From a virus (taxonomy: Duplodnaviria > Heunggongvirae > Uroviricota > Caudoviricetes), in the IMG/VR virus record IMGVR_UViG_3300045988_138358: a stretch of 64,000 nucleotides of DNA. One strand, 5' to 3'. This document shows positions 1 through 28,527 of this stretch, piece after piece. A program made the translations under genes and the position numbers. Under the pieces are notes generated by a model that did not search any database, was not told the DNA's origin, and saw only the letters and a program-made list of their open reading frames with translations. How positions within the stretch are numbered: the first letter of the stretch is position 1; each line of letters opens with the position of its first letter.

Positions 1-617
1 TCACTTGCTGAGTTAATTTCGGAGAGTAAAACTTCGGCGGCTGTCACTGCTGCCCGTAAAGCATCAATTTCATCCTGAGTAATGACTGGAGCCTGAGCGC
101 CCCCAGCACCACCCTGTCCACCATTGCTTTCACCACCACCAGCACTTCCGGTAGCTTCAATTTTTGCGTTAATGGCGTTCATGGCGGTTTTCAGAGCATC
201 AAGTTTTAGCGCCGTCAATGCGTCCGTTAGAGATTGCGGAATGGAAACATTCCCCATTCCCTCAACAAGGGCGAAAGCAGGTATGGGGGTCAGCTCGTTA
301 CCTTTTGCGTAGCATTCCCAGCCAATCTTCATCTGTAACAGCTCTGATGGTTTGGTGTATGGGGAAAGAGAATCAGCCAGTAATGAAGACGCTTTGCTGG
401 CCTCATTGAGCTGTTCGGAAAATCCAAGCAATTGAGTCGTCCAGGCCGACACTGAATCAGGATAGGTTTTATCAGGGTGAACCATTTCCTGTATTGCGCT
501 CGCGAGTGACGAGGCTTTTGAAGAAGCCGCCCGGCTTATGGTTATTGATTCCGGTGTGGAGGCACCAGCACCAGACAGAATTTGGAAGGCTTTAACTTCA
601 CCTATTGAATCAAGCAT
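1..617 (-). CDS. hypothetical phage structural protein, Gly-rich; 3' end lies beyond window start
   Basis: Open frame on minus strand from ATG at 615-617 (MLDSIGEVKAFQ...) running off position 1 with no stop; start overlaps stop of upstream PAAR gene in a TAATG junction. Not in the ORF track because it is incomplete. Confidence 0.4.
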   Translation of the reverse strand, partial: MLDSIGEVKAFQILSGAGASTPESITISRAASSKASSLASAIQEMVHPDKTYPDSVSAWTTQLLGFSEQLNEASKASSLLADSLSPYTKPSELLQMKIGWECYAKGNELTPIPAFALVEGMGNVSIPQSLTDALTALKLDALKTAMNAINAKIEATGSAGGGESNGGQGGAGGAQAPVITQDEIDALRAAVTAAEVLLSEINSAS

Positions 618-901
618 TATGCGACCTGAAAAATATCCTCGCCGTTAGCGATAACAGAACCACAAGAAAGCGGATCGCCTACGCAGACTACTCCCTTTCC
701 ACCTATTGAATACCATGCCCGTGTCGATACAGCCGATCCGGGATGTGCACTGTTGCCATCTGTATGGCTGGGAAACATGGCACCATCCACAACAACTGGC
801 TTACCGTTGACGGTGAACCAGGGAACGGTTTCAGCTACCAGTCGCGGCGGAAATCCTCCGTGACCGGAACAAAGTGTGTCGCTGGTGGCTATTGCGCTCA
901 T
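617..901 (-). CDS. PAAR-repeat spike-tip protein
   Basis: 94 aa; repeated G-x-P / VNGKP...VGD...CG motifs typical of PAAR domain proteins that cap phage or T6SS spikes. Confidence 0.55.
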   Translation of the reverse strand: MSAIATSDTLCSGHGGFPPRLVAETVPWFTVNGKPVVVDGAMFPSHTDGNSAHPGSAVSTRAWYSIGGKGVVCVGDPLSCGSVIANGEDIFQVA

Positions 902-994: not shown

Positions 995-1153
995 TTGTTC
1001 TCAAATTGTTCTCAAATTGTTCTCACTTCTATCCAAGTGCCCGGCAGGCGATTAAAGATATTCTCAAAACAACCTCAATTATGACTCTTATTTATCTCTA
1101 ATTATGTGGATTTTCGATGCCTCCTCTTTTAAAATCATGATTTGATTCTCAAA
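995..1153. repeat. parC-like centromere/promoter iterons upstream of parM
   Basis: Three tandem 11-bp repeats TTGTTCTCAAA at 995-1027 plus further TTCTCAAA copies at about 1051 and 1146, immediately upstream of parM. Confidence 0.55.
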
Positions 1154-1178
1154 TGTGTCTCAGAAGTGGAGCAAGAAG

Positions 1179-2135
1179 ATGCGCATTTTTATCGACGATG
1201 GTTCAACAAATATCAAAATGCTGTGGGAACACGACGGGGAAACTCGCACGCACATCAGCCCTAACAGCTTTAAGCGCGGATGGTCAGCAACATTTGGTGC
1301 TGGCAAGCCATTTAACTATGTCATTGACGACGAAAAGTATTCGTATGATTTGATCTCGCCAGATGTTCTGCCGACGAATAACGTGGAATGGCAATACAGC
1401 CCGCTTAACGTCCTGGCTGTTCACCACGCCCTGCTGACAAGTGGCATTGAGCCGCAGGAAGTAGAAATTGTGGTTACGCTGCCACTGGCGGAGTTTTACG
1501 ACGACGACGCGCAATACAATCTCGATAACATCGAGCGCAAGAAAGCCAGCCTTATGCGCCCCGTCACGCTGAATAAAGGCAATGTATTCACGATTAAGAA
1601 AGTTACGGTACGCCCGGAGTCTATTCCGGCAGGAATTGGCCTGTGCGACAATCTGACCCCTGCCCACTCTGTTCTTATCGTCGATTTGGGTGGAACTACC
1701 CTTGATGTTTCAATGGTCGCCGGGCAAATGACGGCAGTTTCCCGTGTTTTTGGCGATTCGAATCTTGGCGTCTCTCTGGTTACCAGGGAAGTAAGGCAAG
1801 CACTTGCCAGAGCCAATACCGAAACGTCAAATTACAATGTCGATCAGCTCATTATTAACCGCCACGATGAAGATTATCTGAACGACAATATCAATGACCC
1901 ATCAGCTATTGGTGATGTGAAAAAGGCCATTGCTGCAAGTATTGACCGTCTGCGTACCCGCGTTCTTGATGTGATTGGCGATTTTAAAGGATATACGCAT
2001 GTCATGGTGATCGGTGGCGGCGCACCGCTGGTGGCTGATGCAATTCGCGAGCAAGTTAATATTCGCGATGACCGTTTCTTCGTGGCGGATGACCCGCAAC
2101 TTGCTCTTGTTCATGGCCTGAAAGCAATCGGTTAA
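1179..2135 (+). CDS. parM: actin-like partition ATPase ParM (StbA)
   Basis: MRIFIDDGSTNIK...ISPNSF...WQYSPLNVLAVHHALLTSG closely matches plasmid R1 ParM; start moved to internal Met (ORF track 1155). Confidence 0.85.
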   Translation: MRIFIDDGSTNIKMLWEHDGETRTHISPNSFKRGWSATFGAGKPFNYVIDDEKYSYDLISPDVLPTNNVEWQYSPLNVLAVHHALLTSGIEPQEVEIVVTLPLAEFYDDDAQYNLDNIERKKASLMRPVTLNKGNVFTIKKVTVRPESIPAGIGLCDNLTPAHSVLIVDLGGTTLDVSMVAGQMTAVSRVFGDSNLGVSLVTREVRQALARANTETSNYNVDQLIINRHDEDYLNDNINDPSAIGDVKKAIAASIDRLRTRVLDVIGDFKGYTHVMVIGGGAPLVADAIREQVNIRDDRFFVADDPQLALVHGLKAIG

Positions 2136-2141
2136 CGAGGT

Positions 2142-2486
2142 ATGTCCATGTCTCAGGAACGTAAGAAAGTGATGATTTATCTTCGCCCAGGGGCTTATGC
2201 CAATGAAAAGGCGGCGAGCGAGAAGATAAAAAAACATAGCGATATGGCAAGAACTGCATTGTTGGCAGGGCTTGCGCTGGGAGAAGTCGATAGCAGGCTT
2301 CCTGGATTACTGGCTTCCCTGCTGACCGAAGACAATAACCCGGAGCAGATCCGAAAAATGCTGGCATCCTTCCTGGAATTACCTGCTGCTGTTGAGGAGC
2401 ACCCTGCCGCCATTGAGCCAGCGAAGGAGCAAGTTGTTGCCAAAAGCGTGTCGGCGCGTAATCTTGCTGATTCTCTACCTGATTGA
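2142..2486 (+). CDS. parR: partition adaptor ParR-like
   Basis: Small protein directly after parM with 7-nt gap; position and ALLAGLAL segment fit ParR/StbB. Confidence 0.6.
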   Translation: MSMSQERKKVMIYLRPGAYANEKAASEKIKKHSDMARTALLAGLALGEVDSRLPGLLASLLTEDNNPEQIRKMLASFLELPAAVEEHPAAIEPAKEQVVAKSVSARNLADSLPD

Positions 2487-2506
2487 TGGTCAAAACTCTA
2501 TTTTAA

Positions 2507-2529
2507 GGCTGCAAATTGCAGCCTTTTTT
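2507..2529 (+). terminator. rho-independent terminator after parR
   Basis: GGCTGCAA/TTGCAGCC stem followed by a T-run. Confidence 0.6.
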
Positions 2530-2585
2530 GTTCCTTTTTGGTGTTAAAATGGCATCAAAGCGACACCAAATGGGCGTCGTTAATG

Positions 2586-2730
2586 TACTGGTGCATACTT
2601 GGTGCTAATTTAGTGCTATTCAGGCGCAAAACGTGTACCAGTATCCATCGGATTTGATGTTATACTTCCGGCATTAAGAATGGTGCTATTGCTGTACCGT
2701 TGATGTGTAAAAGTGGTGCCGTTTTAGTGT
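2586..2730. repeat. GGTGC-type repeat array, candidate centromere for ParF/ParG module
   Basis: Several copies of (A/T)GTGGTGC(C/T)A and TGTACCAGT upstream of the Walker ATPase gene; similar copies recur downstream at 3713-3750. Confidence 0.4.
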
Positions 2731-2758
2731 AAAAATAGAGCCAAAATAAAGCCGAGGT

Positions 2759-3406
2759 ATGGACATGATTATCCTGGTAGCAAGTCAAAAGGGAGGCTGT
2801 GGCAAGTCAACCACCAGCGTCAATATTTGTGCCGAGCTGGCCCGAAAAAACAAAGATGTCGTCTTGATTGATGCTGATAAGCAGGGAACGGCAGCTCGAT
2901 GGGCGTCAGACCGTAATTCGTCCGAAGTGACACCAGTTATTCATTGCGTCCAGAAGTTTGGAAATATTCGAGAAACTCTGCTCGATCTTAACAATCGATA
3001 TGAATACGTGGTTGTTGATACCGCAGGTCGTGATAGTAAAGAGATGCGCACAGGTATAACGGCGGCGGATATTCTATTGGTTCCATTCAGGCCGTCTCAG
3101 CCAGATTTGGACACGCTGGCACACTTTGTTGAGGTGTTTGAAGAGGCTTTGGATCTGATGCCTAATCCCAATATTAAGGCGTGCGCAGTCTTAACTATGG
3201 CCCCGTCAAATCCGGTTGTGAATGAAGCAAATGAGGCCAAAGAGTATCTGGCAGAATATCCGCAACTGAAATTGCTGAAAACCATTATTCGCGATCGCAA
3301 GGTTTACCGCGACTGCATGGCTGAAGGAAAGGGTGTTGTTGAGATGGATAACGGTAAGGCGAAAGGTGAAATTCAGATGTTAGTTAAGGAGTTGCTAAGT
3401 GATTAA
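2759..3406 (+). CDS. ParA/ParF-type small Walker partition ATPase
   Basis: 215 aa; deviant Walker A VASQKGGCGKSTTS; size typical of type Ib ParA/ParF. Confidence 0.85.
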   Translation: MDMIILVASQKGGCGKSTTSVNICAELARKNKDVVLIDADKQGTAARWASDRNSSEVTPVIHCVQKFGNIRETLLDLNNRYEYVVVDTAGRDSKEMRTGITAADILLVPFRPSQPDLDTLAHFVEVFEEALDLMPNPNIKACAVLTMAPSNPVVNEANEAKEYLAEYPQLKLLKTIIRDRKVYRDCMAEGKGVVEMDNGKAKGEIQMLVKELLSD

Positions 3407-3683
3407 ACGTCGAGAACCAGCTAAAGCGCCTAAGGCTACTGATCCGGAACTTGAGCGAAGAATTGAAGAGTTCGCCAGCAAAGCGGATTTAATCCCGGAT
3501 GAAATTACAACGGGGAAGGTGCTTGATAAAGATGCGCCGCGCGACTTTAAATCCATACGCGTGAGCTTTAATGAATATGAGTACGGGGTGCTCGATGCGT
3601 TAAGCAAAAAGCTTAACCGCAGCAAATTGAACCTGATTCGACATGCCATCCTCATGCTTGCTGAGTCAGAGGATGCTAAATGA
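3399..3683 (+). CDS. ParG/ParB-like small centromere-binding protein (putative)
   Basis: 94 aa basic protein overlapping the end of the ParA-like gene, as in type Ib partition operons. Confidence 0.5.
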   Translation: MIKRREPAKAPKATDPELERRIEEFASKADLIPDEITTGKVLDKDAPRDFKSIRVSFNEYEYGVLDALSKKLNRSKLNLIRHAILMLAESEDAK

Positions 3684-3802
3684 TACCGATTTGATGCCTT
3701 ATTGGCGTCTATCGTGTACCAGTGCAATAATGTGTCAAAGTGGTGCCATAATGGTGTTAATATACAGCCATATTGATATCAAATTGACACTGTATCGGCA
3801 TC

Positions 3803-3830
3803 AAAAAGCCCCAGGCGGGGCTTTTTCTAT
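3803..3830. terminator. bidirectional hairpin terminator between parG-like and dam
   Basis: GCCCC-AGGC-GGGGC stem with A-run before and T-run after; sits where two converging genes meet. Confidence 0.55.
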
Positions 3831-4732
3831 TTGAGCGTTGCAATGATATCGTTAGCGACTATTCGCGTGGATGCTTTGCATGACACGGACCGTCTGGCTG
3901 GCATGTGGTACAGCTTAAAACCGTTTCTTTCGTACAATTCGCGAATTTTTGGCGCGCCACTGTTTGTTATTACTATCTTTGCACCGCGCTGGTGGGCCGC
4001 CACCAACAGTGATACAAGCCGTTTTTGTTCATCGAAAAGGAAGCTATTTCCTGAATAGCTGGTAAATCCCTCTGTATCTGGCAGCGGCTCATACGGCGGA
4101 TCACAAAAAATCACATCGTCTTCACCAGCCGCCTCGATGACACCAGCAAAGTCACCTGATACAAAGGAAGTGTTTTTGAGTACGTCATCAGCCAAAAATG
4201 CCTTCATCTCTGCATGTGGGAAGTAGGGCGCTTTGTATTTGCCATACCCCACGTTGAACTCGCCATTTTGGTTGTACCGCGTTACGCCATTAAAACAGTG
4301 ACGATTAAGGTACAAAAATGCGGCAGCATGATGTAGTTGGTCATACTTTCCTCTGTTAAATGCCTCACGCACTTCGAGGTAAGCGTCAGCGTTGTTGTAA
4401 TTTTTGAAAAAACTATATGACAGCGTGACGAGCGAATGTCCTTCTCGCTGCAATGTCTGATAGAAGTTAATCAGGTCACCGTTAATATCATTAAGCAGGT
4501 TGTGGCGAAATCCTGCATTCGTAAATACGGAACCGCCACCAACGAATGGTTCTATTAACCGCTTACCGTGTGGTAGATGCTCAAGCACTGTAGGCAATTC
4601 TGAGAATTTACCACCTACCCATTTGAATATCGGACGCTCATATTCATCCGGAGTCCGAATGGTGCGCATATAGCTAATTTCAGCCATCGTATCCTGTTTT
4701 TCTATGGCTATGCTTGCTATAGATTTACTCAT
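3827..4732 (-). CDS. dam: DNA adenine methyltransferase (Dam family)
   Basis: KWVGGK, NRHCFNG and DPPY motifs of Dam-type N6-adenine methyltransferases; start set at MSKS, 2 nt after the stop of the upstream gene (ORF track extends to 4828). Confidence 0.85.
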   Translation of the reverse strand: MSKSIASIAIEKQDTMAEISYMRTIRTPDEYERPIFKWVGGKFSELPTVLEHLPHGKRLIEPFVGGGSVFTNAGFRHNLLNDINGDLINFYQTLQREGHSLVTLSYSFFKNYNNADAYLEVREAFNRGKYDQLHHAAAFLYLNRHCFNGVTRYNQNGEFNVGYGKYKAPYFPHAEMKAFLADDVLKNTSFVSGDFAGVIEAAGEDDVIFCDPPYEPLPDTEGFTSYSGNSFLFDEQKRLVSLLVAAHQRGAKIVITNSGAPKIRELYERNGFKLYHMPARRSVSCKASTRIVANDIIATLK

Positions 4733-5477
4733 AGAGCACCCCCTTATTCGCTTCGAAAACTGCCTTTGCGAATCCATGTGGAGTAGCACTTCGAAAATTA
4801 GCCCTGTCAGGCCCTGGTGGCGCGGCATGGATTCTGTTATCTGGCTTGCCTAATGATTCGTCCATTAGGGCATCAGGCATGACAAAGCCCTGGCCGCTCC
4901 AGAGGCATGTTTTTTTTGTGTAGTTATCTTCCTGACAATATGCAGTGAAGAAGTAAGGGTGAAAGATGTGATCTGGCTTACGCCAGAATGTCGATATTTT
5001 GCTGACCGGATTTTCAATCATGTACGGACAACCGATCATCTTTGCAATGTCATAACACTGCCAGACAACCTGCATTGCTTTGAACTGGAAAACCGGATCT
5101 TTATTAGCCTTGTCCGAAAACCAGCGCGCGCCGGAAACAGCCAGGTCAGTACACGGTGGGAACCCGGCCAGAAACACGATGCGCTGCAAATTCTTACGGA
5201 GAAAAGCGTATACTTCATCGCTATCGATGATCGCACTAATACGCGTCAGAACGGCACCTGATTGCATCCGCTCGTCACTGGTCGATAAGTGCTGTGGATC
5301 GACGATAGCGGCATCGACACCGTATTCCAGCCAGGGGGCAACCATTGCCCCCGTAAAATCACAAAGACTCACAACAAGCTGTCGGTTATTATCGTTCTGC
5401 TTCACCGCCAATGGCCTCCACCAGCGCGTTAAACAGTGCAGATAATTCGCCCGTAAAGAGCACGAAATCAGCATCAA
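4725..5477 (-). CDS. C5-cytosine methyltransferase-like protein (short)
   Basis: FLAGFPPC (PC motif) and IENP (ENV-like) motifs; true start may be a GTG nearer the rdgC stop since the track start overlaps rdgC by about 90 nt. Confidence 0.55.
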
Positions 5478-8755: not shown

Positions 8756-9549
8756 TCGATCACTCCGTTTTGAGTCGTATCAAAATTCCTGGCAGGTATG
8801 CAGTAGTAAAGCGAACCAACATGCTGTGTGCCGTAGCTAAAAATACGGTGCACGTACCACCAGCGGCGGGCTACGCCGTTTACCATCTCTTCATTCCATT
8901 CAAGAATTGATCCGACGGGGACGTTATTTGCTGCAATACGCAGAATCAGAACATCATCGGTTAAGCCATCCTGCTCACCGTCTGCGTCAATCGCATGGAA
9001 AGAGTCACGCCCGTCCGGGTTATCCAGCACATAAACGATTTCAGGTTCCTGGTAAGTCAGTTCGCGCTGGTTGTTATCCAGTTCAGTGAATGACTCTTCT
9101 CCTGTTTCGTCGCTGACTACCCCATATGTGCCAACATCTGGTCGATATAAGAGAGCCTGAAACGCGTCTGGGCTGGATTCAATAATCAGCATCCAGTCTG
9201 CGCGGATTTGGTCGTTAAAGGCTTTATGCCCGTTATAGCGTGCTTTTAGCTGTGGAGTTGGTTCTCTGCCAGCCAGGGAAGGTGGAAGTATGGCTATATC
9301 TGATTCGGCAGCATCCGGAGTAAGGCCAGCGTTGCTATCAGCAAAATTATCATGGCTATCAGCTTTGGCGGCGGGTTGCTCTTCCAGAATGCTGAATGAA
9401 TCCGAACCGGTATTGCCATGTTCCGGCGCACCTCCTGCATTCGCTTCAATCGGCGCTGGCGTTTCTCTCTGCGTGCTGTCATGTTCTGACTCCTTACTTG
9501 CCAGGTTTGCATCGTCAGCAAACCATTCGTCAAAACGGCCCATAAGCAT
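8752..9549 (-). CDS. hypothetical acidic protein
   Basis: ORF track 8752..9645; start moved to internal Met (MLMGRFDEWF) because the first 32 codons look non-coding. Confidence 0.4.
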   Translation of the reverse strand: MLMGRFDEWFADDANLASKESEHDSTQRETPAPIEANAGGAPEHGNTGSDSFSILEEQPAAKADSHDNFADSNAGLTPDAAESDIAILPPSLAGREPTPQLKARYNGHKAFNDQIRADWMLIIESSPDAFQALLYRPDVGTYGVVSDETGEESFTELDNNQRELTYQEPEIVYVLDNPDGRDSFHAIDADGEQDGLTDDVLILRIAANNVPVGSILEWNEEMVNGVARRWWYVHRIFSYGTQHVGSLYYCIPARNFDTTQNGVIE

Positions 9550-9705
9550 CCTCAAAGGTCGATCTGTCAGGTATCGAAAGGAAGATTTTCGGGAGATTGT
9601 GATTTTGGATGAAGGAGGGGGAATCCATAAAATGCACTTGCGCACAGTGCAACAGTGCGCTATAGTTATGGCATTCGGTAATCATCACGGAGGATCAAAT
9701 GACTA

Positions 9706-10008
9706 ATGACCAAAAAAATTAACATAAAGGATTTCAGGGATGCGTGGCTTGATGATTTTTTTGAATTTTCAACACCACATAGAAAGATACCTCCTGATAT
9801 TCATATGACATTGTCACGGAAGTTGGACATTATCAATGCCGCAACTACCTGTAAGGATTTAAGATCACCACCAGGTAATCGGTATGAGGAACTGTCAGGG
9901 AAGCTAAATGGCTATTCATCAGTAAGGGTGAATAAGCAATATAGGTTAATTTTTAAGTGGGTTAACGGAAAGGCCGAGGACTTGTATCTCGACCCTCACA
10001 AATACTAA
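9706..10008 (+). CDS. higB: type II toxin HigB (RelE/ParE superfamily killer protein)
   Basis: 100 aa; toxin-first gene order and C-terminal NGYSSVRVNKQYRLIF pattern typical of HigB-type killer proteins. Confidence 0.75.
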   Translation: MTKKINIKDFRDAWLDDFFEFSTPHRKIPPDIHMTLSRKLDIINAATTCKDLRSPPGNRYEELSGKLNGYSSVRVNKQYRLIFKWVNGKAEDLYLDPHKY

Positions 10009-10078
10009 AACAGATACCCGGTTACGGACCGGGTTCTGACCAGAGTCCACTTAATACGCACGCTAGTAAGGGCAAAAA

Positions 10079-10417
10079 ATGAAACAGGCAACCAGAAAAC
10101 CGACGACCGTAGGTGATATCCTTCTGTACGAATACCTGGAGCCGTTAGAGCTGAAGATCAACGAGTTAGCAGAAATACTTCATGTTCATCGTAACACCGT
10201 AAGTGCTCTTGTTAATAATAATCGTAAGCTAACGATGGATATGGCATATCGCCTGGCAAAAGCATTCGATACTTCTGTAGATTTTTGGATTAATCTTCAG
10301 ACCGCAGTAGATCTGTGGGAAGTCGAAAATGATATGCGCGTTCAGGAAGAGTTAAGTCGTATCAATACTGCTGAAAAATTTATTTCTCAGCGGAACCTGA
10401 ATAAAAAAGCAGCCTGA
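10079..10417 (+). CDS. higA: antitoxin HigA (XRE-family HTH)
   Basis: 112 aa with HTH segment (LAEILHVHRNTVSALVNN) directly downstream of higB. Confidence 0.75.
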   Translation: MKQATRKPTTVGDILLYEYLEPLELKINELAEILHVHRNTVSALVNNNRKLTMDMAYRLAKAFDTSVDFWINLQTAVDLWEVENDMRVQEELSRINTAEKFISQRNLNKKAA

Positions 10418-14223: not shown

Positions 14224-14847
14224 ATGAAGGATGGTGTAGTGAAGTTAAGGGCTTTAGGGGCCGCGCTCGCGGCTATGTTGGGATGCGTATCTGCTAATAC
14301 TGCCAATGCAACTGCGTTACCTGCACAATTCAGGGCAGGGCAGCAGGTTATGAATAACGCTGGTGGAGATCATTCACAAGCGGCCATTATGGACTTTTGC
14401 AAGAGGGAGGGCATTCCATTACGGCCTGTTGGAACTCAGTTTATTGGTAAAACTGACTTTTGCGTTTTTGCATATACAGCATATCTGACGGACAAAGCTA
14501 TAACAAAAACAGGTTATTCAACCAAAGATACTCTTTCCAGATTAAGTCAGGGATGGCAGCAATTCGAAGTGTATCGCCAGCAAGGATTAGGTGAGTTATT
14601 GCAACCTCTTTTTATGCTTGCGTTGGTGCCAGAGGGGCAGCAATTTTTGGTTAAAAAGGGAATGCTTCGCCAAAGTGATATTGCCGGGTTCGATAGCATG
14701 ATGGCTTATGAGCGCAAACTAACCGAGCAGCGAAATAAAAAACCATCTGCTTCATGTGTGCAAAGTAAAACAGCAGAATACAGTGCAGTAGCCGGGCCTT
14801 TAGCCAAACAAATGGCAGAGCAATGGTGTAAAAAATACGGGCAATAA
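14224..14847 (+). CDS. secreted protein or lipoprotein, unknown function
   Basis: N-terminal signal-like segment ending AAMLGC. Confidence 0.5.
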   Translation: MKDGVVKLRALGAALAAMLGCVSANTANATALPAQFRAGQQVMNNAGGDHSQAAIMDFCKREGIPLRPVGTQFIGKTDFCVFAYTAYLTDKAITKTGYSTKDTLSRLSQGWQQFEVYRQQGLGELLQPLFMLALVPEGQQFLVKKGMLRQSDIAGFDSMMAYERKLTEQRNKKPSASCVQSKTAEYSAVAGPLAKQMAEQWCKKYGQ

Positions 14848-14867
14848 GTTACGCAGCGGAGGCAGAA

Positions 14868-15260
14868 TTGAAAAGATTGGCTATTGCTTTACTGGCGTCT
14901 TTCCCTTTGATCGCGAGCGCCGGAAATTTACAAGTTAAGTGCGGTCGGTTTGATATAAAAATCTATCCAGATGCCATATTTCTGAATGGGAATAAGGTTG
15001 ATAACGCACACCGAAAAACTGAATCTGACGTAATGAGCTATGTGTTCCAGGAGTATGCGGAGATGGGGGGAACTTACACGCTGTACTCGCTGGATGTTCC
15101 TTCTCGCGGTGATATGACATTATCCCATCAATGGCAGAACGCCGATGGCGAAGCTCTGCGCGAGGTTAAAACAGAAAAATGTGGCACTTTCCATTCTTTT
15201 AAAGGGAAAGCGCCAAATGTTAAATCTGTGCTTGAAAAACAGCGCGCAGGTGAGCTTTAA
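14868..15260 (+). CDS. secreted protein, unknown function
   Basis: Classic signal peptide MKRLAIALLASFPLIASA. Confidence 0.55.
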   Translation: MKRLAIALLASFPLIASAGNLQVKCGRFDIKIYPDAIFLNGNKVDNAHRKTESDVMSYVFQEYAEMGGTYTLYSLDVPSRGDMTLSHQWQNADGEALREVKTEKCGTFHSFKGKAPNVKSVLEKQRAGEL

Positions 15261-16146
15261 ACACCTTTAACCACGGAGATGCCGTTCCCTGCACGATAGC
15301 GGCGGGGAACGGAATTCTCCATCAGGTCACGAATTACTCCCGCCTCATGTAGTTCCACTGTTTCCCAGTATCTGTTTGTCACCAATTACGCCCCTTTCCG
15401 CCAGGGGAAGGTATGAACGAGCTTCTGCTTCGGTTGCAGCCATGACGCAGATATACAGGTGTTTTTGGCAGGAATAGAAACGCCAGATAAATTCAGAATG
15501 AGTTGGGGTGGGGATAGTAGCGATATTGGCAGCCTCCTTTGACTAAGTTAAGGAGCTACCGCGTGAGGTTCCAATCCCGGCACCCGTTTTTCTAAGGTGC
15601 CGTAGAAATATACCCCACGATAAGGCCAGGGCGCAAAAGTCAGTATTTTATGCTTTGGCGGATTTCTTCCGGGCTTGCTTGCAGGCGTAGGCCATTGCTT
15701 TAGCTTTCACTTCATCCAGCTTCCCGGTGATCACTTCTTTTCCGAGAGTGACAAACCAGTCATAGCAACCGCCAGTGATGTTCTGGATTTGAAAGTTGAG
15801 GTAGCGAACGGTCATTTTGACACCCCCAGCGCGAGTAAAGAATGCAGATTATCGCGTGAGTGGCGGACAACGAGTGATGGGAAAAGACAGTAGCTGTTCA
15901 TAGTGTAGTGACTCCTTGCTTTCGGAGCCGCCTTCGACTGTTCCACGGTCTGGTGGCGGCGCAATAAAGGCTGGAACACCGTGAGTCAACGGGGGCTTTT
16001 CAGCCACCTATATTGCACCGCCATAGGTATAGCGGCGGCAATAATACGAAAAACTAAACAGTTTGTCTCAAAAAGTTGACCGGTGTGCCAATCGGTAGTG
16101 AATGTACATCGGAGAAATTTACAATTCAACTTAAAATGTTAGAAAA

Positions 16147-18626: not shown

Positions 18627-18949
18627 TGACCACATCTCATTCTGCAATTACCCAGGAAAAAGCCTTCCACATACTCGAACGATTAGAAACGCTCGCTACG
18701 GAGGAGAAGATATCCCCGGAGATGCTGGTCGAGTGCAGCCGTGTGATATTGCGTCGCAAGAACGACATCGCGCGGCTGACATCTGGCGCACCATCCGTAT
18801 CAGCCAGTCCAACGCTTTATTGCAGCTTCTGCAACAAATCCCAGCACACCGTTAAAAAGTTAATTGCCGGGGACAACGCTTTCATCTGCAACGAGTGCGT
18901 GAAAGATTGCAACAACATTATCCAGGAAGAGCAAAGGGAATCAGCATGA
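18623..18949 (+). CDS. ClpX-type zinc-binding domain protein
   Basis: C-terminal [39 protein letters not shown] is near-identical in pattern to the ClpX N-terminal C4 zinc-binding domain. Confidence 0.7.
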
Positions 18950-19662
18950 AATTTTCCAAATTTTCTGAGTTGGTGAATCGTATTTTGTCCGACAACCACA
19001 GCCATCGTCGCGATATGGATGTAACGATCGTTGTTCATTCGCCTGGTCGCATCGGTTCAACACCATCAGTTGAGGTTCAGTCAATTCAGGTGGGTTTTGA
19101 TTGGGATGCCGGGAAAGTGCTGATTTTCCCAGCACAGCCACTGACCACGCTAACACCAGAACAGATTACTGATATCACGGATAGTGTGCGCAAAGGTCAG
19201 TCTTGGCACGCATATCAGGAATACAAGAAGCATAAAGAGCAGTTGGAAAAATTGTCGATTGAACTGGATGCTGCAAGACGGCGCATTACAGAACTGGAGA
19301 GCGAACGCGCGGTGCTGGCGGCGGAGAATGCGGAGCTGAAGTCTGTGCACCCTCAACCATTCGGAGCTGAGATGATGAAGGCTCTTGATGCGTATGAGAA
19401 GCATCAGGATGAAGTGCCAGAGACTGGAATGCTCAATGCATTTTTCATCTTGCGCGACAGTATCTGTGTTGACACCCCAGCCACCGATGCTTTCCTGGCT
19501 GAAGTACGGGCGCAGGGGGTAGAGATGTACGCAGATAACCTCGACAACGGAGCAGACGACGCAGAACGAGGTGGTTTTGATTATGCCGTTAAGTTTCTAC
19601 GCAGTGAAGCGTCTAGTGTACGTTTGTTCGCCGACCAGCTTCGCAAAGGAGGCAGCCAGTGA
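18946..19662 (+). CDS. Ea22-like protein
   Basis: Coiled-coil segment ([22 protein letters not shown]) and conserved [17 protein letters not shown] tail; start at internal Met with AAGGGAA site. Confidence 0.6.
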
Positions 19663-22250: not shown

Positions 22251-22854
22251 CTATCAAGAACTGCGCGAGGCGGCGGAACAGGCAACGCAAGATGAATGGG
22301 TAGCATATATTTTGCCGGGTCATAACGGCATTTATCCTGCGCGCACATCTGAGGGTAGGCATTGCGGATACTTTATTGACTGGCCTGGCATTGATGGACA
22401 AAGGAATGCTGGTGCTAATGCCCGTTATATCGCTGCTATCCCACCAAAAGTTGCGTTGTCACTACTGGATGAAATTAAACGTCAGGAGGACTCAAATATT
22501 GATGCTATGTGCCGTATTGCAGAGCTTGAAACTAATATCGCGGCGCTGGTGGCAGAGAACGCCGGACTGAAACACGCAATGGCCGTAACTCTTGAGCATG
22601 TGTCGGTAACGGATGCAGGGCAGGCCGGAGTTGCTGCGATGATTATTAATGATGCCCTGCACCACAGCGAAACGCCAGCTACCGACGCTTTCATGGCGGA
22701 AGTGCGGGCGCAGGGGGTGGATATGGCTCGTAACGCGATGATTGATTTTGTTGATGGTGAAGTTGGGCCAAACAAGAACGTTCCGGGTCTGATTAGAGGC
22801 GCAGAGATATGCGTAAGTATTGCTGAACAGCTTCGCAAAGGAGGCAACCAGTGA
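22237..22854 (+). CDS. Ea22-like protein
   Basis: INYQELREAAEQAT N-terminus and [16 protein letters not shown] tail shared with paralogs. Confidence 0.6.
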   Translation: MSKINYQELREAAEQATQDEWVAYILPGHNGIYPARTSEGRHCGYFIDWPGIDGQRNAGANARYIAAIPPKVALSLLDEIKRQEDSNIDAMCRIAELETNIAALVAENAGLKHAMAVTLEHVSVTDAGQAGVAAMIINDALHHSETPATDAFMAEVRAQGVDMARNAMIDFVDGEVGPNKNVPGLIRGAEICVSIAEQLRKGGNQ

Positions 22855-23336
22855 GCGAAATTAATTACCAGGCACTGCGTGAGGCGGCGGAACGTGCAAC
22901 TCCAGCAATGGAACGCCTGTTAATGTTGCCAGCTGATGATGATTTGTTAAGTGAACAGGAACTTAAAGATTACGGTGTGGATATTGATGCGCTCAACGCC
23001 TTCAAATTTCTGATCGGACCAGAAACCGTGCTGGCGCTGCTGGATGAACGGGAAAGAAACCAGCAATACATAAAACGCCGCGATCAGGAGAACGAGGATA
23101 TTGCGCTAACGGTAGGGAAGCTGCGCGTTGAGCTTGAGGCAGAAAAACAGCGGGCAAAGGATCTGTTTATGGAAAATGCTCGGCTTAAGTCAGGTATAGC
23201 CGGTCTGATACACCTCGGTATTCGATATGCGGATGTTGAGGTCATGAAAATTGCTGGAGATGCCCAGCTTTCTACCCCATGCACTGACAGCATCATAAAC
23301 AGCATTGCAACAGGCATTCGCATCGAAGGAGAGTGA
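22851..23336 (+). CDS. Ea22-like protein
   Basis: INYQALREAAERAT N-terminus, same paralog family. Confidence 0.55.
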   Translation: MSEINYQALREAAERATPAMERLLMLPADDDLLSEQELKDYGVDIDALNAFKFLIGPETVLALLDERERNQQYIKRRDQENEDIALTVGKLRVELEAEKQRAKDLFMENARLKSGIAGLIHLGIRYADVEVMKIAGDAQLSTPCTDSIINSIATGIRIEGE

Positions 23337-23337
23337 C

Positions 23338-24111
23338 ATGACCACTTTAACCGACAAAGAACTGATTAAAGAAATCAAAGAGCGCATAGGCAGCTTGGAC
23401 GTTCGAGACAATATTGAGCGCCGTGCTTATGAAATTGCACTGGCATCGATGGAAGCAGATCCAGTTGCTTATATTTTCAAACATCCGGCCGGGAAATTAT
23501 TCTGGGCTTTAACGGATGAAAGCAATAAAGAGCAAGCGGACGTTATTCCTGTTTATGCCGCCCCTCCAGTACCAGTAGTACCTGCTGCATTACCTGAGAA
23601 CGACGATGATGACGGGCATGACATTGATTATCTTGAGCCATCTGAAGTTTACTCGCTTGGGCGAACAGCTGGCTGGAACGCCTGCCGTGCTGCCATGCTT
23701 CATGGTGCCGAACCTGTAAGCCAAACTTACAAGTTGCCTCCCCTGTCATCCAACGAAGTAAACGACGCGGCATGGAAATTACGCAACATGCTTACTGAAC
23801 ACGGTCCTCTTAATGGGCGTCAGTTCAACAATCTGAAAGGTTGCTTCTATGAGGCATTAAAGGTCGCAATGCGCAACTATCCGGTAACTCCGGATGGTTG
23901 GATAAGCTGTAGTGAGCGAATGCCGGATACCAAAACAGCCGTTCTTGTTGCCAAGGAGTTTGATAGGAAAGGTGACTGGCGAATGAAATGGGCGACTTAC
24001 ATCCCGGGGCATCCTGACGCTAATGATGGGTGGATCATTCCTGGGGCGTCGTGGAAACCGTCACACTGGATGCCGCTACCAGAACCGCCGCAGGAGGTTA
24101 ACCGTGGCTAA
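23338..24111 (+). CDS. DUF551-like protein
   Basis: C-terminal WISCSERMPD...WMPLPEPP typical of DUF551; start at internal Met with GAAGGAGAG site. Confidence 0.55.
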   Translation: MTTLTDKELIKEIKERIGSLDVRDNIERRAYEIALASMEADPVAYIFKHPAGKLFWALTDESNKEQADVIPVYAAPPVPVVPAALPENDDDDGHDIDYLEPSEVYSLGRTAGWNACRAAMLHGAEPVSQTYKLPPLSSNEVNDAAWKLRNMLTEHGPLNGRQFNNLKGCFYEALKVAMRNYPVTPDGWISCSERMPDTKTAVLVAKEFDRKGDWRMKWATYIPGHPDANDGWIIPGASWKPSHWMPLPEPPQEVNRG

Positions 24112-24385
24112 CCTTCAACTGGCAGTTAACGGTGAATATTTCGACCAGATGAAGTCTGGAGAGAAAACGGAAGAGTATCGCTTGTGTAATGACTACTGGA
24201 ATAAGCGAATTCTGTTCCGCGAGTATGACCGCCTGATTATCACAAAGGGATATCCGAAGCGCGATGATTCCAGCCGCAGAATAGACGTCCCGTATGACGG
24301 ATATGAAATCAAGACAATCACGCATCCCCACTTCGGCGATAAACCGGTAAAGGTTTACGCGATAAAGGTAAATATCAATGGCTAA
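24104..24385 (+). CDS. small ASCH/PUA-like protein (tentative)
   Basis: Probable GTG start after CAGGAGG; the ORF track extends upstream into the previous gene. Confidence 0.35.
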   Translation: MANLQLAVNGEYFDQMKSGEKTEEYRLCNDYWNKRILFREYDRLIITKGYPKRDDSSRRIDVPYDGYEIKTITHPHFGDKPVKVYAIKVNING

Positions 24386-24782
24386 ATTTCAAAGAAATAT
24401 TATTTTTCTGGCAATGTTATCTGCCTGTCATTTATCTCATGCATCGGTTATTGCTGCGGGAGCTGCGGCAACCGCTGTAATTAGCGCCTCATCCGCCAGC
24501 GAGCATGAGCAACGTACTGCAATCAATGCATCTGCCAATACCACCACGGTATCAGTAACACAAGAAAAGCCGAATATCGGCTTTGTTACTTGTGGCAAGC
24601 GATATGGTGAAATGGTTGGCTCTCTTGGTTGCGTAATGTGGCAAGACGACGACCGAACAGAAATTCCGTGGAACTCATGGCCTGGCTACATTCTTGGTAA
24701 GAAGCTGCCCACCAGCTATGAAGTAAATGCTATTTCGTTCGACCAATATAACAGTGTTGCAACGGTCTATTTCTCTTATTAA
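24378..24782 (+). CDS. secreted protein, unknown
   Basis: Signal-like N-terminus NIIFLAMLSACHLSHA. Confidence 0.45.
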   Translation: MAKFQRNIIFLAMLSACHLSHASVIAAGAAATAVISASSASEHEQRTAINASANTTTVSVTQEKPNIGFVTCGKRYGEMVGSLGCVMWQDDDRTEIPWNSWPGYILGKKLPTSYEVNAISFDQYNSVATVYFSY

Positions 24783-24794
24783 CACGGAGTAATT

Positions 24795-25088
24795 ATGTGG
24801 CGCGGTAATAATCATGGTGGAAGCCAGATGATACTTACCGAATATCAGCTCGACCACAAAACCAATAAATCACGCTCAGTATATTTGCTTCGGCACAATA
24901 GCCGCGTAAGGAATACCGTGCTGGAGCAAAATCTGACCGTTGAAATGGATAATTCGGGGAACTTCAAGCCAACAATTTCGCTTGATGATTTTCCGCGTGG
25001 TTTAAGCGAAAGAGAAGCCATGCTGAAATTAGCAGAATGGCTTCAGAGGTTAAGTATTGTTATTGAAGATAACTGGAGTCAACCATAA
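24795..25088 (+). CDS. hypothetical protein
   Basis: 97-aa ORF. Confidence 0.4.
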   Translation: MWRGNNHGGSQMILTEYQLDHKTNKSRSVYLLRHNSRVRNTVLEQNLTVEMDNSGNFKPTISLDDFPRGLSEREAMLKLAEWLQRLSIVIEDNWSQP

Positions 25089-25343
25089 TGAAAAACAGAA
25101 AGAAATTTTGGATTACTTTTTTGTTTGTATGCCTTTGCGGTTTATTTATTTTATTAGCTGGTGGTGTTAAATGGGGTACGGTGGGGTGTGGTTTTTGGAG
25201 CGGGGTTACTCTTTTCGCAGCCTGGCTTATCGCCAACTTTGAGTCAGGCGGAGGGTATTGGTAAGTGGTCTTATTCCCCACTTCATAACGGATATCACGC
25301 TCGTGATAACGGATATTCCAATTTTGATAACGGATAAGGCCAA

Positions 25344-25553
25344 ATGAAGCATTTTTTAAGGTTGGCATTTGTTCTGGCGCTATTTGATCCTCCGGCTGCA
25401 ATGGCTGGAGAACAGCAACATTGCACAAAAGAGAATGAACCCCCTTTCATCGTTATTCAATGCGATGACGGAACGGTGACTGTGGTTAATGTAAGAAATG
25501 ACCGTGTAGCTGTTTGCCGTAAAGGCGAACCATGCAAGGAAATAAAACTATGA
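25344..25553 (+). CDS. small secreted protein
   Basis: Signal peptide MKHFLRLAFVLALFDPPAAMA. Confidence 0.4.
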   Translation: MKHFLRLAFVLALFDPPAAMAGEQQHCTKENEPPFIVIQCDDGTVTVVNVRNDRVAVCRKGEPCKEIKL

Positions 25554-26308
25554 CAAGAATCACTAAAGAGCGTATTTCAGATATTATTTCCCGTATCGAA
25601 ATGTATGGTCACGGTGCTGGATATACGGCAGATGAAGTATTGGCACTTGCCCAAATGGCTTTGGCGGCTTGCAAAGATGATAAAAAAATGAAGCTTATCG
25701 ACTTGTTAGTGAAGGAGCTGCCTAAGTGCGGCGGGTGGCCTGATGGTATGATCGATTGTCGCCTGCTCAGTGCCAATTTAATGGCGCCATGCGCGACTTT
25801 TGCTTTTGGCTCAGACCACAAAAAAGACACGTTCTTTGGGCGCAATTTTTGTTGTGAGATTGAGCTTCCAATTGGTGACCTTGATAGCGATGAATACCTG
25901 TCAGTTGTCACTCGCGAACAATACGAATCAGCTCTCATAGCGTCGCAGAAAGTCGAGTTCAATGGTGATGAACTTGAAAGTAAGACTTACAGGTTGGATT
26001 TTGGGCAATGGCTGGAACAGCAACGCGGGAAAATCGATGTGGACTGTGGTTGTGTGTCCACTGAAACATTCATGCACTGGCTGCGGGTAGCTTACGAGGC
26101 TGGCAACCATCCGGATTTTCCGGATAGTTCCCAACAATCGCCCAAGAAAAGCGTAAAAACCACTCTGGAAAGAGGCTATCTTGAGGCCGCATTAAAGATT
26201 AAGCCTGGCCATACGCTAGGCGTCATTGATGCCATGTTGGTTCATGAAATGGCGAAGGCTTTATTGCCGCTGGTGGCTGATAAAATTCCGAATAAAGCCG
26301 ATATCTGA
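25550..26308 (+). CDS. hypothetical protein
   Basis: Start at internal Met (MTRITKER), 4-nt overlap with upstream stop. Confidence 0.45.
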   Translation: MTRITKERISDIISRIEMYGHGAGYTADEVLALAQMALAACKDDKKMKLIDLLVKELPKCGGWPDGMIDCRLLSANLMAPCATFAFGSDHKKDTFFGRNFCCEIELPIGDLDSDEYLSVVTREQYESALIASQKVEFNGDELESKTYRLDFGQWLEQQRGKIDVDCGCVSTETFMHWLRVAYEAGNHPDFPDSSQQSPKKSVKTTLERGYLEAALKIKPGHTLGVIDAMLVHEMAKALLPLVADKIPNKADI

Positions 26309-26347
26309 TCACCATGCTAAAATCCCCTCAATTCACAGAGGGGATTT

Positions 26348-26620
26348 TTGTATATGTTGCATAGAGTTTTATGGAAAAGCGTTATTGTCGGCGCGATACT
26401 GGCTATATCTGGGTGTGCAATGGTGCAATACAACGACGGTGAAAAGGTAAGCATACAGTCAGATGGTTGGTATGGCCTGGATAGCCTGCAAAAAACCGCA
26501 GATAAAGCCTGTCAGCAATATGGGAAGTCTAAAGCAGTATATCAGCATAGCGCGAACGCTAACCCTCATCTAGCGCCCGGTTCTGGTGTTCAGAATACCA
26601 TCTGGAAATGTGAGCCTTAA
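26348..26620 (+). CDS. small lipoprotein (putative)
   Basis: Signal peptide ending in lipobox-like LAISGC. Confidence 0.45.
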
Positions 26621-26622
26621 AT

Positions 26623-26874
26623 ATGAGCGACTGGAATATTGCAGCTAAAAGTCAGGAAGAACGGGATAAGGTTAACGTTGATCTGGCTGCCAGCGGTGTG
26701 GCGTACAAAGAGCGATTGAACATACCTGTCATAGCTGAACAGGTAGCCCGCGAGCAACCAGAGAATCTGCGCACCTATTTCATGGAACGGCTACGGCACT
26801 ACCGGCAGTTAAGCCTCCAGTTGCCAAAAGGGAGCGATCCGGTGTATCAGAACGAGGATGCACCAAAAAAATAG
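26623..26874 (+). CDS. hypothetical protein
   Basis: 83-aa ORF 3 nt after previous stop. Confidence 0.4.
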
Positions 26875-26959
26875 CGGCAAGATGGGGGAGAAATGTGATT
26901 AGCCCCCAGCGTGGCGCGCCTACAAACCCAGCTTTCACAAACTATGCCTTTTCAATGTA

Positions 26960-26997: not shown

Positions 26998-27387
26998 ATG
27001 GGCTTCCCTTCTCCTGCGGCGGATTATGCAGAGAGCCGCATTTCTCTTGATCAGCAACTAATCAGACATCCTTCCGCGACCTACTTCATGCGGGCGGCAG
27101 ACAGCCATCACCGTGAGGGAATATTGCAAGGTGCTTTGCTGGTGGTTGATTCCTCACTTACTCCGGTTGATGGTTCACTGCTTATATGCGCTATGGAGGG
27201 TGAATATCGCATAAAGAGATACAGGAAGTATCCGCGCCAGCACCTGGAGGATTTAAGCACCGGGAAGAAAGAGGCGTTACCAGTAGATGACGATGGATAC
27301 ACGGGCAGTAATGCTGTTTTTGGTGTGATCACTCATGTCATCAATGATGCCCGAAGTGGGGAGTTTGATTATAGACCTGTGATTTAA
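26998..27387 (+). CDS. humD: UmuD'-like protein (pre-processed form), HumD-like
   Basis: MGFPSPAADYAE... aligns with UmuD starting just after its autocleavage site; Ser and Lys of the S24 dyad appear retained; no umuC follows. Confidence 0.75.
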   Translation: MGFPSPAADYAESRISLDQQLIRHPSATYFMRAADSHHREGILQGALLVVDSSLTPVDGSLLICAMEGEYRIKRYRKYPRQHLEDLSTGKKEALPVDDDGYTGSNAVFGVITHVINDARSGEFDYRPVI

Positions 27388-27432
27388 GGCGCATAAAGAA
27401 GCCCGCCAGACCAGGCGGGCTTTTTGTTGATA

Positions 27433-28527
27433 TCATTCAATGATTTTTTCGGCTGTCAGCCAGCTAATTTCGTGCCTGTCTTTCGGCGGTTTTAGCATGT
27501 GAGCATATTCAGCGACATGCTCCCACGGAATTGTTTTTGCCCACTCAACGATAGCATTGTGATCTGCAGTGAAGAGTGGAATAGTGTGCGATTTCAACCA
27601 TTCTAATGTCGTGACGCCATGTTTTTTGGCGTGGTGCTGCGCATGATGCCGGGCTATCACTCGTAATGGCATTGTCCATTCACTACCATCAGGCATCGAA
27701 AAGCGCATTGTCTTCGGCATATCTGATTCAAGAACAGCCTCCCTAATACCAGGGAACTCACCAAGAATCATACGACGATAGTCATCACTATTTCGCCCGC
27801 CATACCTTTCGGCAAAATGATCAAGATATTCTTGGGTAATAAATGGTGAATCCTCCGCACTCAGCTTAATGGCTTTATATACACCACTCGGATTATCTTC
27901 AGCTAAAGCACGTCCATGATGTGAATCATAAAAAAAGCCTATTTCCTCTGGTGACGGAATTGAAGTGAGCAATATGCGTGAATCACCACTAGTCATGCTT
28001 GCCCACACAATGCTGTATGCCCGATCGCTGATATGTGCGGAATCCACAATAATGAATAAAAGATGGTCGGCGTAGTGACCTGCAATGCTATCTTCATAGT
28101 TAAGGCGGTAGTTACAAAAGCACATTCCCCAAAATTCATTGAACATCAGACCGCTATCACCGACCTTAAAATACTCAATGATAAAAGGTTGTTTTTTCAG
28201 CAATGCCTCCCAACATTGCCACACATATGCAACAATTCCTCTTTTGCAAACATTTGATTTTGGATAAACAATTACTGTCCGGGAATCAGGATACATAATC
28301 GTATAAAGGGTACTAATAACAGCAAGCACTTGCGGTCGTCCGATCCCATACGGAGTGGTGACAGTAGCTTTTGCATTATTGGGCTGTATAGCTTCAACAA
28401 TTTGTTGTTGCTGGTGGCTTAAATCAATATCAAACAATTCTTTTGCTGCCAGTACCCAATTGTCTTTATATTTCTCCACCAGCGACAGCCAGCGCGGATC
28501 TTTATAAATATTGCTCTTAGTCGCCAT
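27433..28527 (-). CDS. terminase large-subunit paralog with degenerate ATPase motifs and divergent C-terminus
   Basis: Aligns with PacB-like protein at 33675-35183 (HQQQQIVEAIQ, FYDSHHG...NP.G...I.L..E.SPF), but Walker A GTGKS is replaced by GIGRPQ and Walker B DE by DS; start at internal Met. Confidence 0.55.
   Translation of the reverse strand: MATKSNIYKDPRWLSLVEKYKDNWVLAAKELFDIDLSHQQQQIVEAIQPNNAKATVTTPYGIGRPQVLAVISTLYTIMYPDSRTVIVYPKSNVCKRGIVAYVWQCWEALLKKQPFIIEYFKVGDSGLMFNEFWGMCFCNYRLNYEDSIAGHYADHLLFIIVDSAHISDRAYSIVWASMTSGDSRILLTSIPSPEEIGFFYDSHHGRALAEDNPSGVYKAIKLSAEDSPFITQEYLDHFAERYGGRNSDDYRRMILGEFPGIREAVLESDMPKTMRFSMPDGSEWTMPLRVIARHHAQHHAKKHGVTTLEWLKSHTIPLFTADHNAIVEWAKTIPWEHVAEYAHMLKPPKDRHEISWLTAEKIIE

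Follow-up and report, generated by a model that had tools for sequence, protein, structure and literature searches.

Type II and type Ib partition modules in tandem: a probable double par locus in a D6-like phage-plasmid

The parC centromere of plasmid R1 consists of ten 11-bp iterons, arranged in two sets that flank the promoter. The type Ia parABS system of phage P1 comprises a large ParA with an N-terminal regulatory domain, a helix-turn-helix (HTH) ParB and the parS site. Autorepression by the centromere-binding protein is familiar from R1 parC, TP228 parH and pB171. Two system types adjoin in the double par locus carried by pB171, a virulence plasmid of E. coli, in which par1 is a type II ParMRC system and par2 a type Ib system composed of ParA, ParB and the sites parC1 and parC2 (Ebersbach & Gerdes 2001 and Ringgaard et al. 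2007, as both are cited in PMC4270457 and PMC13245405); par2 works with parC1 and parC2 as centromeres on both sides of parAB (PMC4270457). The combination of a type II system with a type I ribbon-helix-helix (RHH) system, of which pB171 is the prototype, occurs on 971 PLSDB plasmids according to a 2026 survey, which describes it as previously reported (PMC13245405). The present analysis concerns the par locus of a 64-kb window, that is, the whole stretch of 64,000 nucleotides analysed from the IMG/VR virus record IMGVR_UViG_3300045988_138358. A sequence-only reading of this DNA had proposed two partition modules of different types side by side, each with its own repeat array; all of these elements are present (Table 1), and statistically the observation stands firm. 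With good confidence, the locus is assigned as a double partition (par) locus belonging to a D6-like phage-plasmid, with a type II and a type Ib module in tandem, and the two modules together are, in all probability, the sole partition functions of the prophage plasmid.

The type II module combines an actin-fold ATPase, a small adaptor and an array of direct iterons. ParM exceeds the Pfam cut-offs for both StbA_N (1.7e-69) and ParM_N (5.5e-55), and a PDB search aligns it over its full length with the R1 ParM structures (E 1e-110 to 1e-111), as expected for the actin-like ATPase of a ParMRC system. Directly 3' of parM lies the gene for the small adaptor ParR, which matches Pfam Plasmid_stab_B (2.2e-11; 43.9 bits against a cut-off of 25 bits) and the StbB/ParR structure 2jd3 (E 1.5e-6), and is assigned to PHROG 8671 (partition protein). 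Upstream of parM, exact TTCTCA is found five times on the + strand of the 277-bp spacer against about 0.07 expected (32 occurrences on both strands of the whole 64 kb), and self-similarity at lag 11 is the top signal (z = 5.7). Together, the matches of both genes and the TTCTCA enrichment bear out the ParM/ParR module with 11-bp iterons that had been read from the sequence. The longer repeat TTGTTCTCAAA is exact at 995 and 1006, carries two mismatches at 1017 and recurs in weaker copies at 1058, 1143 and 1154 (repeat family D3).

The iterons were further examined in an alignment of the region upstream of parM with six relatives, of which five have spacers 73-79% identical to that of the window and the sixth is 99% identical here. 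The iteron cores are invariant at 25 of 28 positions, compared with 32 of 109 non-core positions (Fisher P = 7.5e-9, a value somewhat inflated because the last few cores were picked with the alignment in view). In the region of the putative parM promoter, TTTTAAAAT and T.TGGAT are invariant across the six relatives, and the promoter sits between the middle and the proximal iteron clusters. The direct iteron array of a type II system is thus observed as such, and its overlap with the promoter depends on a promoter that was read from conservation. The full-length ParM match, the adaptor gene downstream and the 11-bp direct iterons upstream, around the putative promoter, all resemble R1 ParMRC. 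The locus differs from R1 in that its approximately nine iterons are distributed over three clusters (3+4+2) and have another core sequence; moreover, the StbB family of pB171 is nearer to its ParR than R1 ParR is, because 2jd3 was the only structure matched in the PDB.

Regarding the second module, the sequence-only reading had described a ParF-type ATPase with a small partner, and both are found. Residues 9-15 of ParA read KGGCGKS, the sole KGGxxK[ST] motif among the open reading frames (ORFs) of the window, and the protein is a small ParA whose Walker A motif is deviant and which lacks an N-terminal HTH, as is characteristic of type Ib systems. It is assigned to PHROG 164 (ParA-like), and its best PDB match is TP228 ParF, over the full length (E 1.1e-17). 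The term ParF-type is therefore appropriate for the class, type Ib, whereas the nearest characterised relative is the pB171-type par2 ParA, at 43% identity. The partner gene begins with a GTG codon that overlaps the parA stop by 8 nt, and a ribosome-binding site (AAGGAG) lies 7 nt upstream; through this overlap the partner is translationally coupled to parA.

The partner alone gave no Pfam, NCBIfam or PDB sequence match, nor did a shallow profile built from it, and it falls into PHROG 9169, of unknown function. An exhaustive profile search retrieved 124 remote relatives of 54-284 aa, most of them below 100 aa. Among the 82 relatives that were aligned, Pfam matches were obtained to NikA-like (15), RHH_1 (6), DUF6290 (6), RHH_7 (3), TraY (3) and TacA1 (2), most or all of which we take to be RHH families, and the family profile aligns in register to CopG, weakly (E about 0.16). 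An AlphaFold2 (AF2) model based on the 82-sequence alignment reached a mean predicted local distance difference test (pLDDT) score of 85, with values above 90 for residues 41-90; a 13-sequence alignment gave a pLDDT of 55, and that model was not used. A Foldseek search of the PDB with the retained model returned nearly exclusively RHH proteins (CopA-SO, ParG 1p94, TacA1, CopG, ORF56 and Arc), with target-normalised template modelling (TM) scores of 0.7-0.84 and root-mean-square deviations of 1.0-1.7 Å over about 42 residues; ParG 1p94 ranked fourth and was aligned over 75 columns. The architecture comprises a basic N-terminal tail (MIKRR...; family consensus MxKxR), a helix at residues 16-29, a linker and a C-terminal RHH domain at about residues 50-91. 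Collectively, the model and the remote family indicate that the partner is likely an RHH protein with the architecture of type Ib centromere-binding proteins such as ParG.

This arrangement is comparable to TP228 ParF/ParG/parH, in which a small ParA without an N-terminal DNA-binding domain is likewise served by a partner made of a basic flexible tail and a C-terminal RHH domain. It differs from TP228 in that the partner has no detectable sequence similarity to ParG, each repeat unit combines a core and a spacer within 11 bp, and the operon has arrays on both of its sides. In Providencia, Aeromonas and Pantoea phage G19, ParA relatives with 41-45% identity are paired with partners of the pB171-ParB type, which argues that the window partner defines a separate RHH family (PHROG 9169), probably attached to the same ParA clade. 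The hidden Markov model (HMM) of the partner family scored pB171-type partner proteins at E 0.004-0.3 in a 12-sequence database and did not place them in the family. Among distant partner relatives, the gene is always located just 3' of a small ParA, which it often overlaps, and in one case the pair stands beside a Rep_3 initiator. In Serratia, Aeromonas, Arsenophonus and Marinobacter plasmids, the partner match abuts a gene annotated as 'AAA family ATPase/MipZ'.

Repeat arrays border the type Ib operon on both sides, in agreement with the GGTGC-type repeats that the sequence-only reading had placed around the ATPase. In the upstream array, each unit consists of a 6-bp core (TGGTGC, TGGTGT, TAGTGC, TGTACC or the inverted GCATCA/ACACCA) followed by an AT-rich spacer, and the 11-bp register of the parA flanks is exemplified by TGGTGCATACT, TGGTGCTAATT and TAGTGCTATTC and, further along, by TGGTGCCGTTT and TAGTGTAAAAA. 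TGGTGC occurs five times in the two parA flanks against 0.15 expected (P = 5e-7); GGTGC, TGTAC and GTACC are likewise most enriched, and nowhere in the window is this motif class denser than in the upstream flank. Upstream of parA, periodicity is evident at lags 11, 22 and 33 (z = 5.0, 3.0 and 3.8), and in the downstream array lag 11 is the top signal (z = 4.2), with harmonics at 22 and 33. Furthermore, a 41-nt promoter-proximal block (2703-2743) recurs downstream at 3730-3770 with 80% identity (repeat family D1). The motif TG.TATACT, the putative extended -10 of the operon, is invariant in all six relatives amid an otherwise diverged spacer.

The same features are recognised in the relatives. 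The upstream arrays of D6, Shigella and E. fergusonii keep the motif class and the periodicity at 66-73% DNA identity, and the TGGTGC motif class is enriched in the downstream array of all six relatives. The tested D6, Shigella and E. fergusonii alleles of all three intergenic regions (IGRs) likewise have their strongest signal, or very nearly, at lag 11; in IGR3 of E. fergusonii, lag 10 (z = 3.0) slightly exceeds lag 11 (z = 2.9). A distant relative (L016) shows a weaker 11-bp periodicity and a weak enrichment by the strict GGTRC count, and the motif may, tentatively, track the partner family beyond Enterobacteriaceae. It was also observed that the two type Ib arrays each have GGCATCAAA at their outer edge (2551-2559 and 3797-3805), and that its inverted form, TTTGATGCC, lies at 3690-3698, just 3' of the partner stop (inverted repeat I4); these sequences are inverted variants of the TGGTGC core with one mismatch, and the limits of the arrays may be marked by them.

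Short cores of 5-6 bp and the degeneracy of many units are what would be seen if the repeats were chance or compositional features of AT-rich intergenic DNA. This origin is refuted by the enrichment (P 5e-7 to 1e-12), by lag-11 z values of 4-6 with harmonics that appear independently in alleles 58-73% identical, and by the stronger conservation of cores than of spacers, and almost no weight is given to it. The N-terminal 60 residues of ParR are nearly invariant among the relatives, and the near-invariance of the N-terminal, DNA-binding half of ParR and of the partner RHH strand, which reads KSIRV[S/G]FNEYEY, would fit the invariance of the repeat cores.

The two modules are separate transcription units, insulated by the terminator between them. 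The hairpin of this terminator spans 2505-2525 and folds with -13.5 kcal/mol (z = -4.3); among the six relatives the terminator is nearly invariant, E. fergusonii having a single substitution in the loop. A motif search for pB171-style cross-talk sites between the arrays found none: GGTRC is absent upstream of parM and TCTCA is absent from the flanks of the parA operon, the two motif sets being mutually exclusive. At the distal end, the hairpin that closes the locus (-15 kcal/mol, z = -3.4) was found by reading the sequence and missed by the terminator scan; it is present in the Shigella relative as well. The span originally given for the locus, 995-3750, keeps its start, and its end is moved slightly outward to this hairpin.

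The comparison with pB171 was carried out on a pB171-type locus of an IncF plasmid (L007), located through the 2jd3 ParR sequence (100% over 77 aa). The likeness lies in the two adjoining system types, with identities of 43% for ParA, 43% for ParM and 32% for ParR (N-terminal 75 aa), and in the type Ib operon flanked by arrays on both sides, like parC1 and parC2 of par2. In contrast to L007, whose modules diverge around a shared central parC1 region, those of the window follow one another in the same direction, are separated by a terminator and share neither a centromere nor motifs, so that the divergent pB171-style layout is not found here. Further differences concern the partner, which falls into a different RHH family (BLASTP E 0.12; HMM E 0.1), the repeats, which are of the TGGTGC class at 11-bp spacing in the window and of the ATGAAAT/TCATAA type in L007, and the host, a P1-like myovirus prophage as opposed to a conjugative IncF plasmid.

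Table 1. Features of the double par locus. Coordinates are those of the 64-kb window; gene starts match the RefSeq annotation of a 99.3%-identical plasmid (NZ_CP122510.1).
Feature	Position	Strand	Description
Double par locus (probable)	995-3826	+	four co-directional genes and three repeat arrays, two tandem modules
parC-like centromere/operator, type II	995-1166	+	about nine 11-bp iterons, core (T)TCTCA, three in-phase clusters (3+4+2)
Iteron cluster 1	995-1027	+	3 units; CTCA/CTCT cores at 1000, 1011, 1022
Iteron cluster 2	1058-1099	+	4 units; CTCA/CTCT cores at 1063, 1074, 1085, 1096
Putative parM promoter	1107-1135	+	-35-like TGGATT 1107-1112, 17-nt spacer, -10 TAAAAT 1130-1135; read from conservation
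Iteron cluster 3	1143-1164	+	2 units; cores at 1148, 1159
parM (stbA)	1179-2135	+	actin-like segregation ATPase, 318 aa; Pfam, PDB
parR (stbB)	2148-2486	+	centromere-binding adaptor, 112 aa; Pfam, PDB; alternative start 2142
Intrinsic terminator ending the parMR operon	2505-2531	+	9-bp stem and T-run; terminator scan and fold
Upstream centromere/operator array, type Ib	2539-2757	+	about 17 units phased at 11 bp; clusters 2539-2588, 2589-2643, 2681-2757
Putative extended -10 of the parA operon	2658-2666	+	TGtTATACT; read from conservation; repeat clusters on both sides
parA	2765-3406	+	deviant-Walker-A partition ATPase, 213 aa; Pfam AAA_31, MipZ, CbiA, VirC1
Centromere-binding protein of the type Ib module (predicted)	3399-3683	+	94 aa; RHH by model and remote family
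Downstream array (parC2-like), type Ib	3687-3803	+	about 8-10 units phased at 11 bp
Bidirectional terminator hairpin	3803-3826	.	AAAAGCCCC-AGGC-GGGGCTTTT, 10-bp stem; common to the convergent Dam-type methylase gene

On this layout a working scheme can be proposed for both modules, in which the pairing of proteins with repeats, the promoters, the autoregulation and the stabilisation of the plasmid by both modules are inferred. ParR dimers would bind the TTCTCA iterons straddling the parM promoter, forming the partition complex and repressing the parMR operon, and ParM-ATP filaments capped by ParR/parC complexes would push sister plasmids apart. In the second module, the 94-aa RHH protein would bind the 11-bp-phased TGGTGC/GGTAC arrays on both sides of the parA operon, the upstream array around the promoter would serve its autoregulation, and the basic N-terminal tail of the partner would stimulate the ATPase of nucleoid-bound ParA, so that plasmids would be positioned along the nucleoid by following the distribution of ParA-ATP. 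By analogy with the known systems, both promoter/array layouts would give autorepression by the respective centromere-binding protein.

It could be argued that the TGGTGC arrays are mere operators, or replication or copy-control iterons, and that the ParA/RHH pair does not serve DNA partition, since RHH proteins are mostly repressors, the upstream array surrounds a conserved -10, and ParA-like ATPases also position non-DNA cargo. A second array is nevertheless located 3' of the operon, where there is no repression target; it duplicates the upstream block, moves together with the partner gene among recombinants, and has a placement that corresponds to the parC1/parC2 layout of pB171 par2 (PMC4270457). 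The ParA itself shares 43% identity with a pB171-type partition ParA, and distant relatives of the pair reside on plasmids, once next to a Rep_3 initiator. The operator explanation is consequently considered very improbable. A function as replication iterons was rejected, given that some 11 kb separate the locus from the RepB gene and that the parA operon is enclosed by the arrays.

The element itself is a D6-like relative of P1 and not P1, which had served as the frame of the sequence-only reading. The window is colinear with phage D6 (MF356679) from 55973 through the origin to 32199, with 87-97% identity, and the four genes recur in unchanged order in D6 as orf58-61, where their annotations read StbA type, StbB type, 'possible ParA partitioning function' and hypothetical. 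Identity to D6 amounts to 99% for ParM and 93% for ParA. Gene order and position, between the upfC/PAAR gene and the methylase region, are identical in D6 and pYU39_89; the window differs from D6 in that its intergenic arrays are another allele (66% and 61% identity), as is the N-terminal half of its partner protein, and in lacking glnS. For pYU39_89 and D6-like Salmonella plasmids, parA, stbB and parM are given as partition functions (PMC6799933). A P1-type parA/parB pair is annotated neither in D6 nor in a 98.7%-identical plasmid, and in neither are further par genes of any kind annotated around the RepB replicon, whose RepA/RepB-family initiator lies about 11 kb from the locus in both. The likeness to P1 parABS is one of role, in that a low-copy plasmid prophage with a P1-like virion is stably inherited; type Ia components, as in P1 and F, are absent from the window, D6 and the close relative, and the single Walker-type ParA of the window has 213 aa.

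At the DNA level, 122 PLSDB records from E. coli, Salmonella and Shigella match the locus. ParM was found in 119 records and ParA in 118 (at least 80% protein identity), and the partner in 118 (at least 60%); both modules are present in 40 of the best 40 of the 122 DNA matches. D6 is the only sequenced phage carrying both modules. As D6 and approximately 118-122 PLSDB plasmids carry the locus, the pair is ancestral equipment of the lineage. The suggestion of module exchange relative to P1 therefore holds at the level of the lineage, but not as a recent addition to a P1 backbone.

Pairwise Nei-Gojobori comparisons among six alleles gave dN/dS (nonsynonymous to synonymous substitution rate) ratios of 0.01-0.04 for parM, 0.07-0.26 for parR, 0.00-0.03 for parA and 0.04-0.11 for the partner gene, with dS reaching saturation. 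Purifying selection is strong on all four genes, and both modules look functional; decay of one module into a remnant was rejected on this basis. A different possibility is that one module alone partitions in the usual host and that the other is conditional (on host, copy-number state or co-resident plasmids) or mainly regulatory. A precedent is provided by the dual-system plasmid SCP1, where, in the laboratory, one system was critical and the other was not (PMC13245405); in addition, locus segments have been reshuffled among relatives, suggesting selection on specificity or compatibility. However, the purifying selection acts on all four genes over saturating synonymous divergence, both modules are intact in every relative examined, from four species, and the PLSDB record counts of the two modules are nearly equal. 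A single working module is thus regarded as rather unlikely, and the assignment of partition to both modules is retained.

Several observations weigh against the assignment as a whole. A two-hexamer consensus promoter scan called neither the parM nor the parA promoter, both of which were read from conservation. ParA reaches 162 bits against the NCBIfam model NF041546 (ParA_partition; cut-off 180), making it a relative of that equivalog and not a member. The partner, whose RHH fold is a prediction, gave weak Foldseek E-values (0.17-1), as expected for a 45-residue domain; it has no detectable sequence homology to ParG in the PDB search, even with profiles, and no detectable similarity to the 91-aa pB171-type ParB by BLASTP. 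The downstream array is weak by the strict GGTRC count (2 against 0.33 expected, P = 0.04), and it is better supported by its periodicity and the 41-nt block. No experiments on D6-like par modules were found in a literature search that excluded the D6 genome paper (Gilcrease & Casjens 2018), and, as on SCP1, one of the two systems may contribute little.

The intergenic arrays are 58-73% identical between allele types, compared with 73-98% for the genes, and they keep the motif class and the periodicity; this is the pattern that would be expected where only short cores are read. Identity is unevenly distributed along the locus. Between the window and pEHP91H1-2, identity in the genes amounts to 82% (parR), 95% (parA) and 75% (partner gene), and in the intergenic regions to 99% (upstream of parM), 72% (upstream of parA) and 60% (downstream of the partner gene). 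The partner gene and the downstream array form one linked unit, 97-100% common to D6, pEHP91H1-2 and a Salmonella Blockley plasmid, and the 3' end of parR with the upstream array forms a second, 98% common to Shigella and pEHP91H1-2. The reassortment of these linked segments among relatives shows that recombination has occurred inside the locus, which is a mosaic. More speculatively, and with little confidence, the double locus could be a diversifying 'partition-incompatibility barcode', in which the arrays and the variable N-terminal half of the partner evolve fast and are shuffled through recombination, and ParM and ParA stay almost unchanged. If so, several D6-like or P1-like phage-plasmids could co-reside or displace one another, and the tandem layout would be a recombination cassette with breakpoints in the intergenic arrays.

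Regarding the neighbouring genes, the 94-aa ORF at 617-901 (- strand) is homologous to P1 upfC and has a PAAR-like motif (26.7 bits against a Pfam cut-off of 27); its homologues are annotated as PAAR domain proteins in RefSeq relatives. Convergent to the par locus, a Dam-type N6-adenine methyltransferase gene occupies 3827-4828 (- strand; Pfam MethyltransfD12, 1.2e-55), overlapped by a 250-aa ORF at 4725-5477 (- strand) without Pfam match, in the position of D6 orf64, a 'putative DNA-cytosine methylase'. In D6 (L001, 8786-10715) and three other relatives (L004, L005 and L006), the par locus is immediately followed by glnS, encoding glutaminyl-tRNA synthetase. The window and Shigella dysenteriae plasmids have no glnS, and their downstream array joins the methylase terminator directly (3684-3830). 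In NZ_CP122510.1 (L002), the window's nearest relative, an IS91-family transposase is inserted at 9128-10327, beside rdgC and a few kb downstream of the par locus. Elsewhere in the window, the segments 14282-15571, 18932-19648, 22269-26901 and 27380-28543 have no D6 counterpart at the blastn level. Genes for two Ead/Ea22-like proteins and for a DUF551 protein lie in the largest, the other tested ORFs having no Pfam match, and these segments look like ordinary variable phage accessory cargo.

The four genes were already annotated in D6, and the combination of a type II with a type I RHH system has been reported before; it is known and common, no new mechanism is involved, and the practical value is modest. 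What is new, in a minor way, is the RHH assignment of the partner, predicted from model and family, together with the full map of the three 11-bp-phased arrays, their mosaic evolution and the arrangement of the modules in tandem with insulation between them. A role is thereby assigned to a protein still called hypothetical (D6 orf61, PHROG 9169), and the mapped segments can serve as ready constructs for stability and incompatibility tests. The map of arrays, likely promoters and terminators describes the inheritance anatomy of D6-like phage-plasmids, which are widespread, have E. coli, Salmonella and Shigella as hosts and in some cases bear resistance genes.

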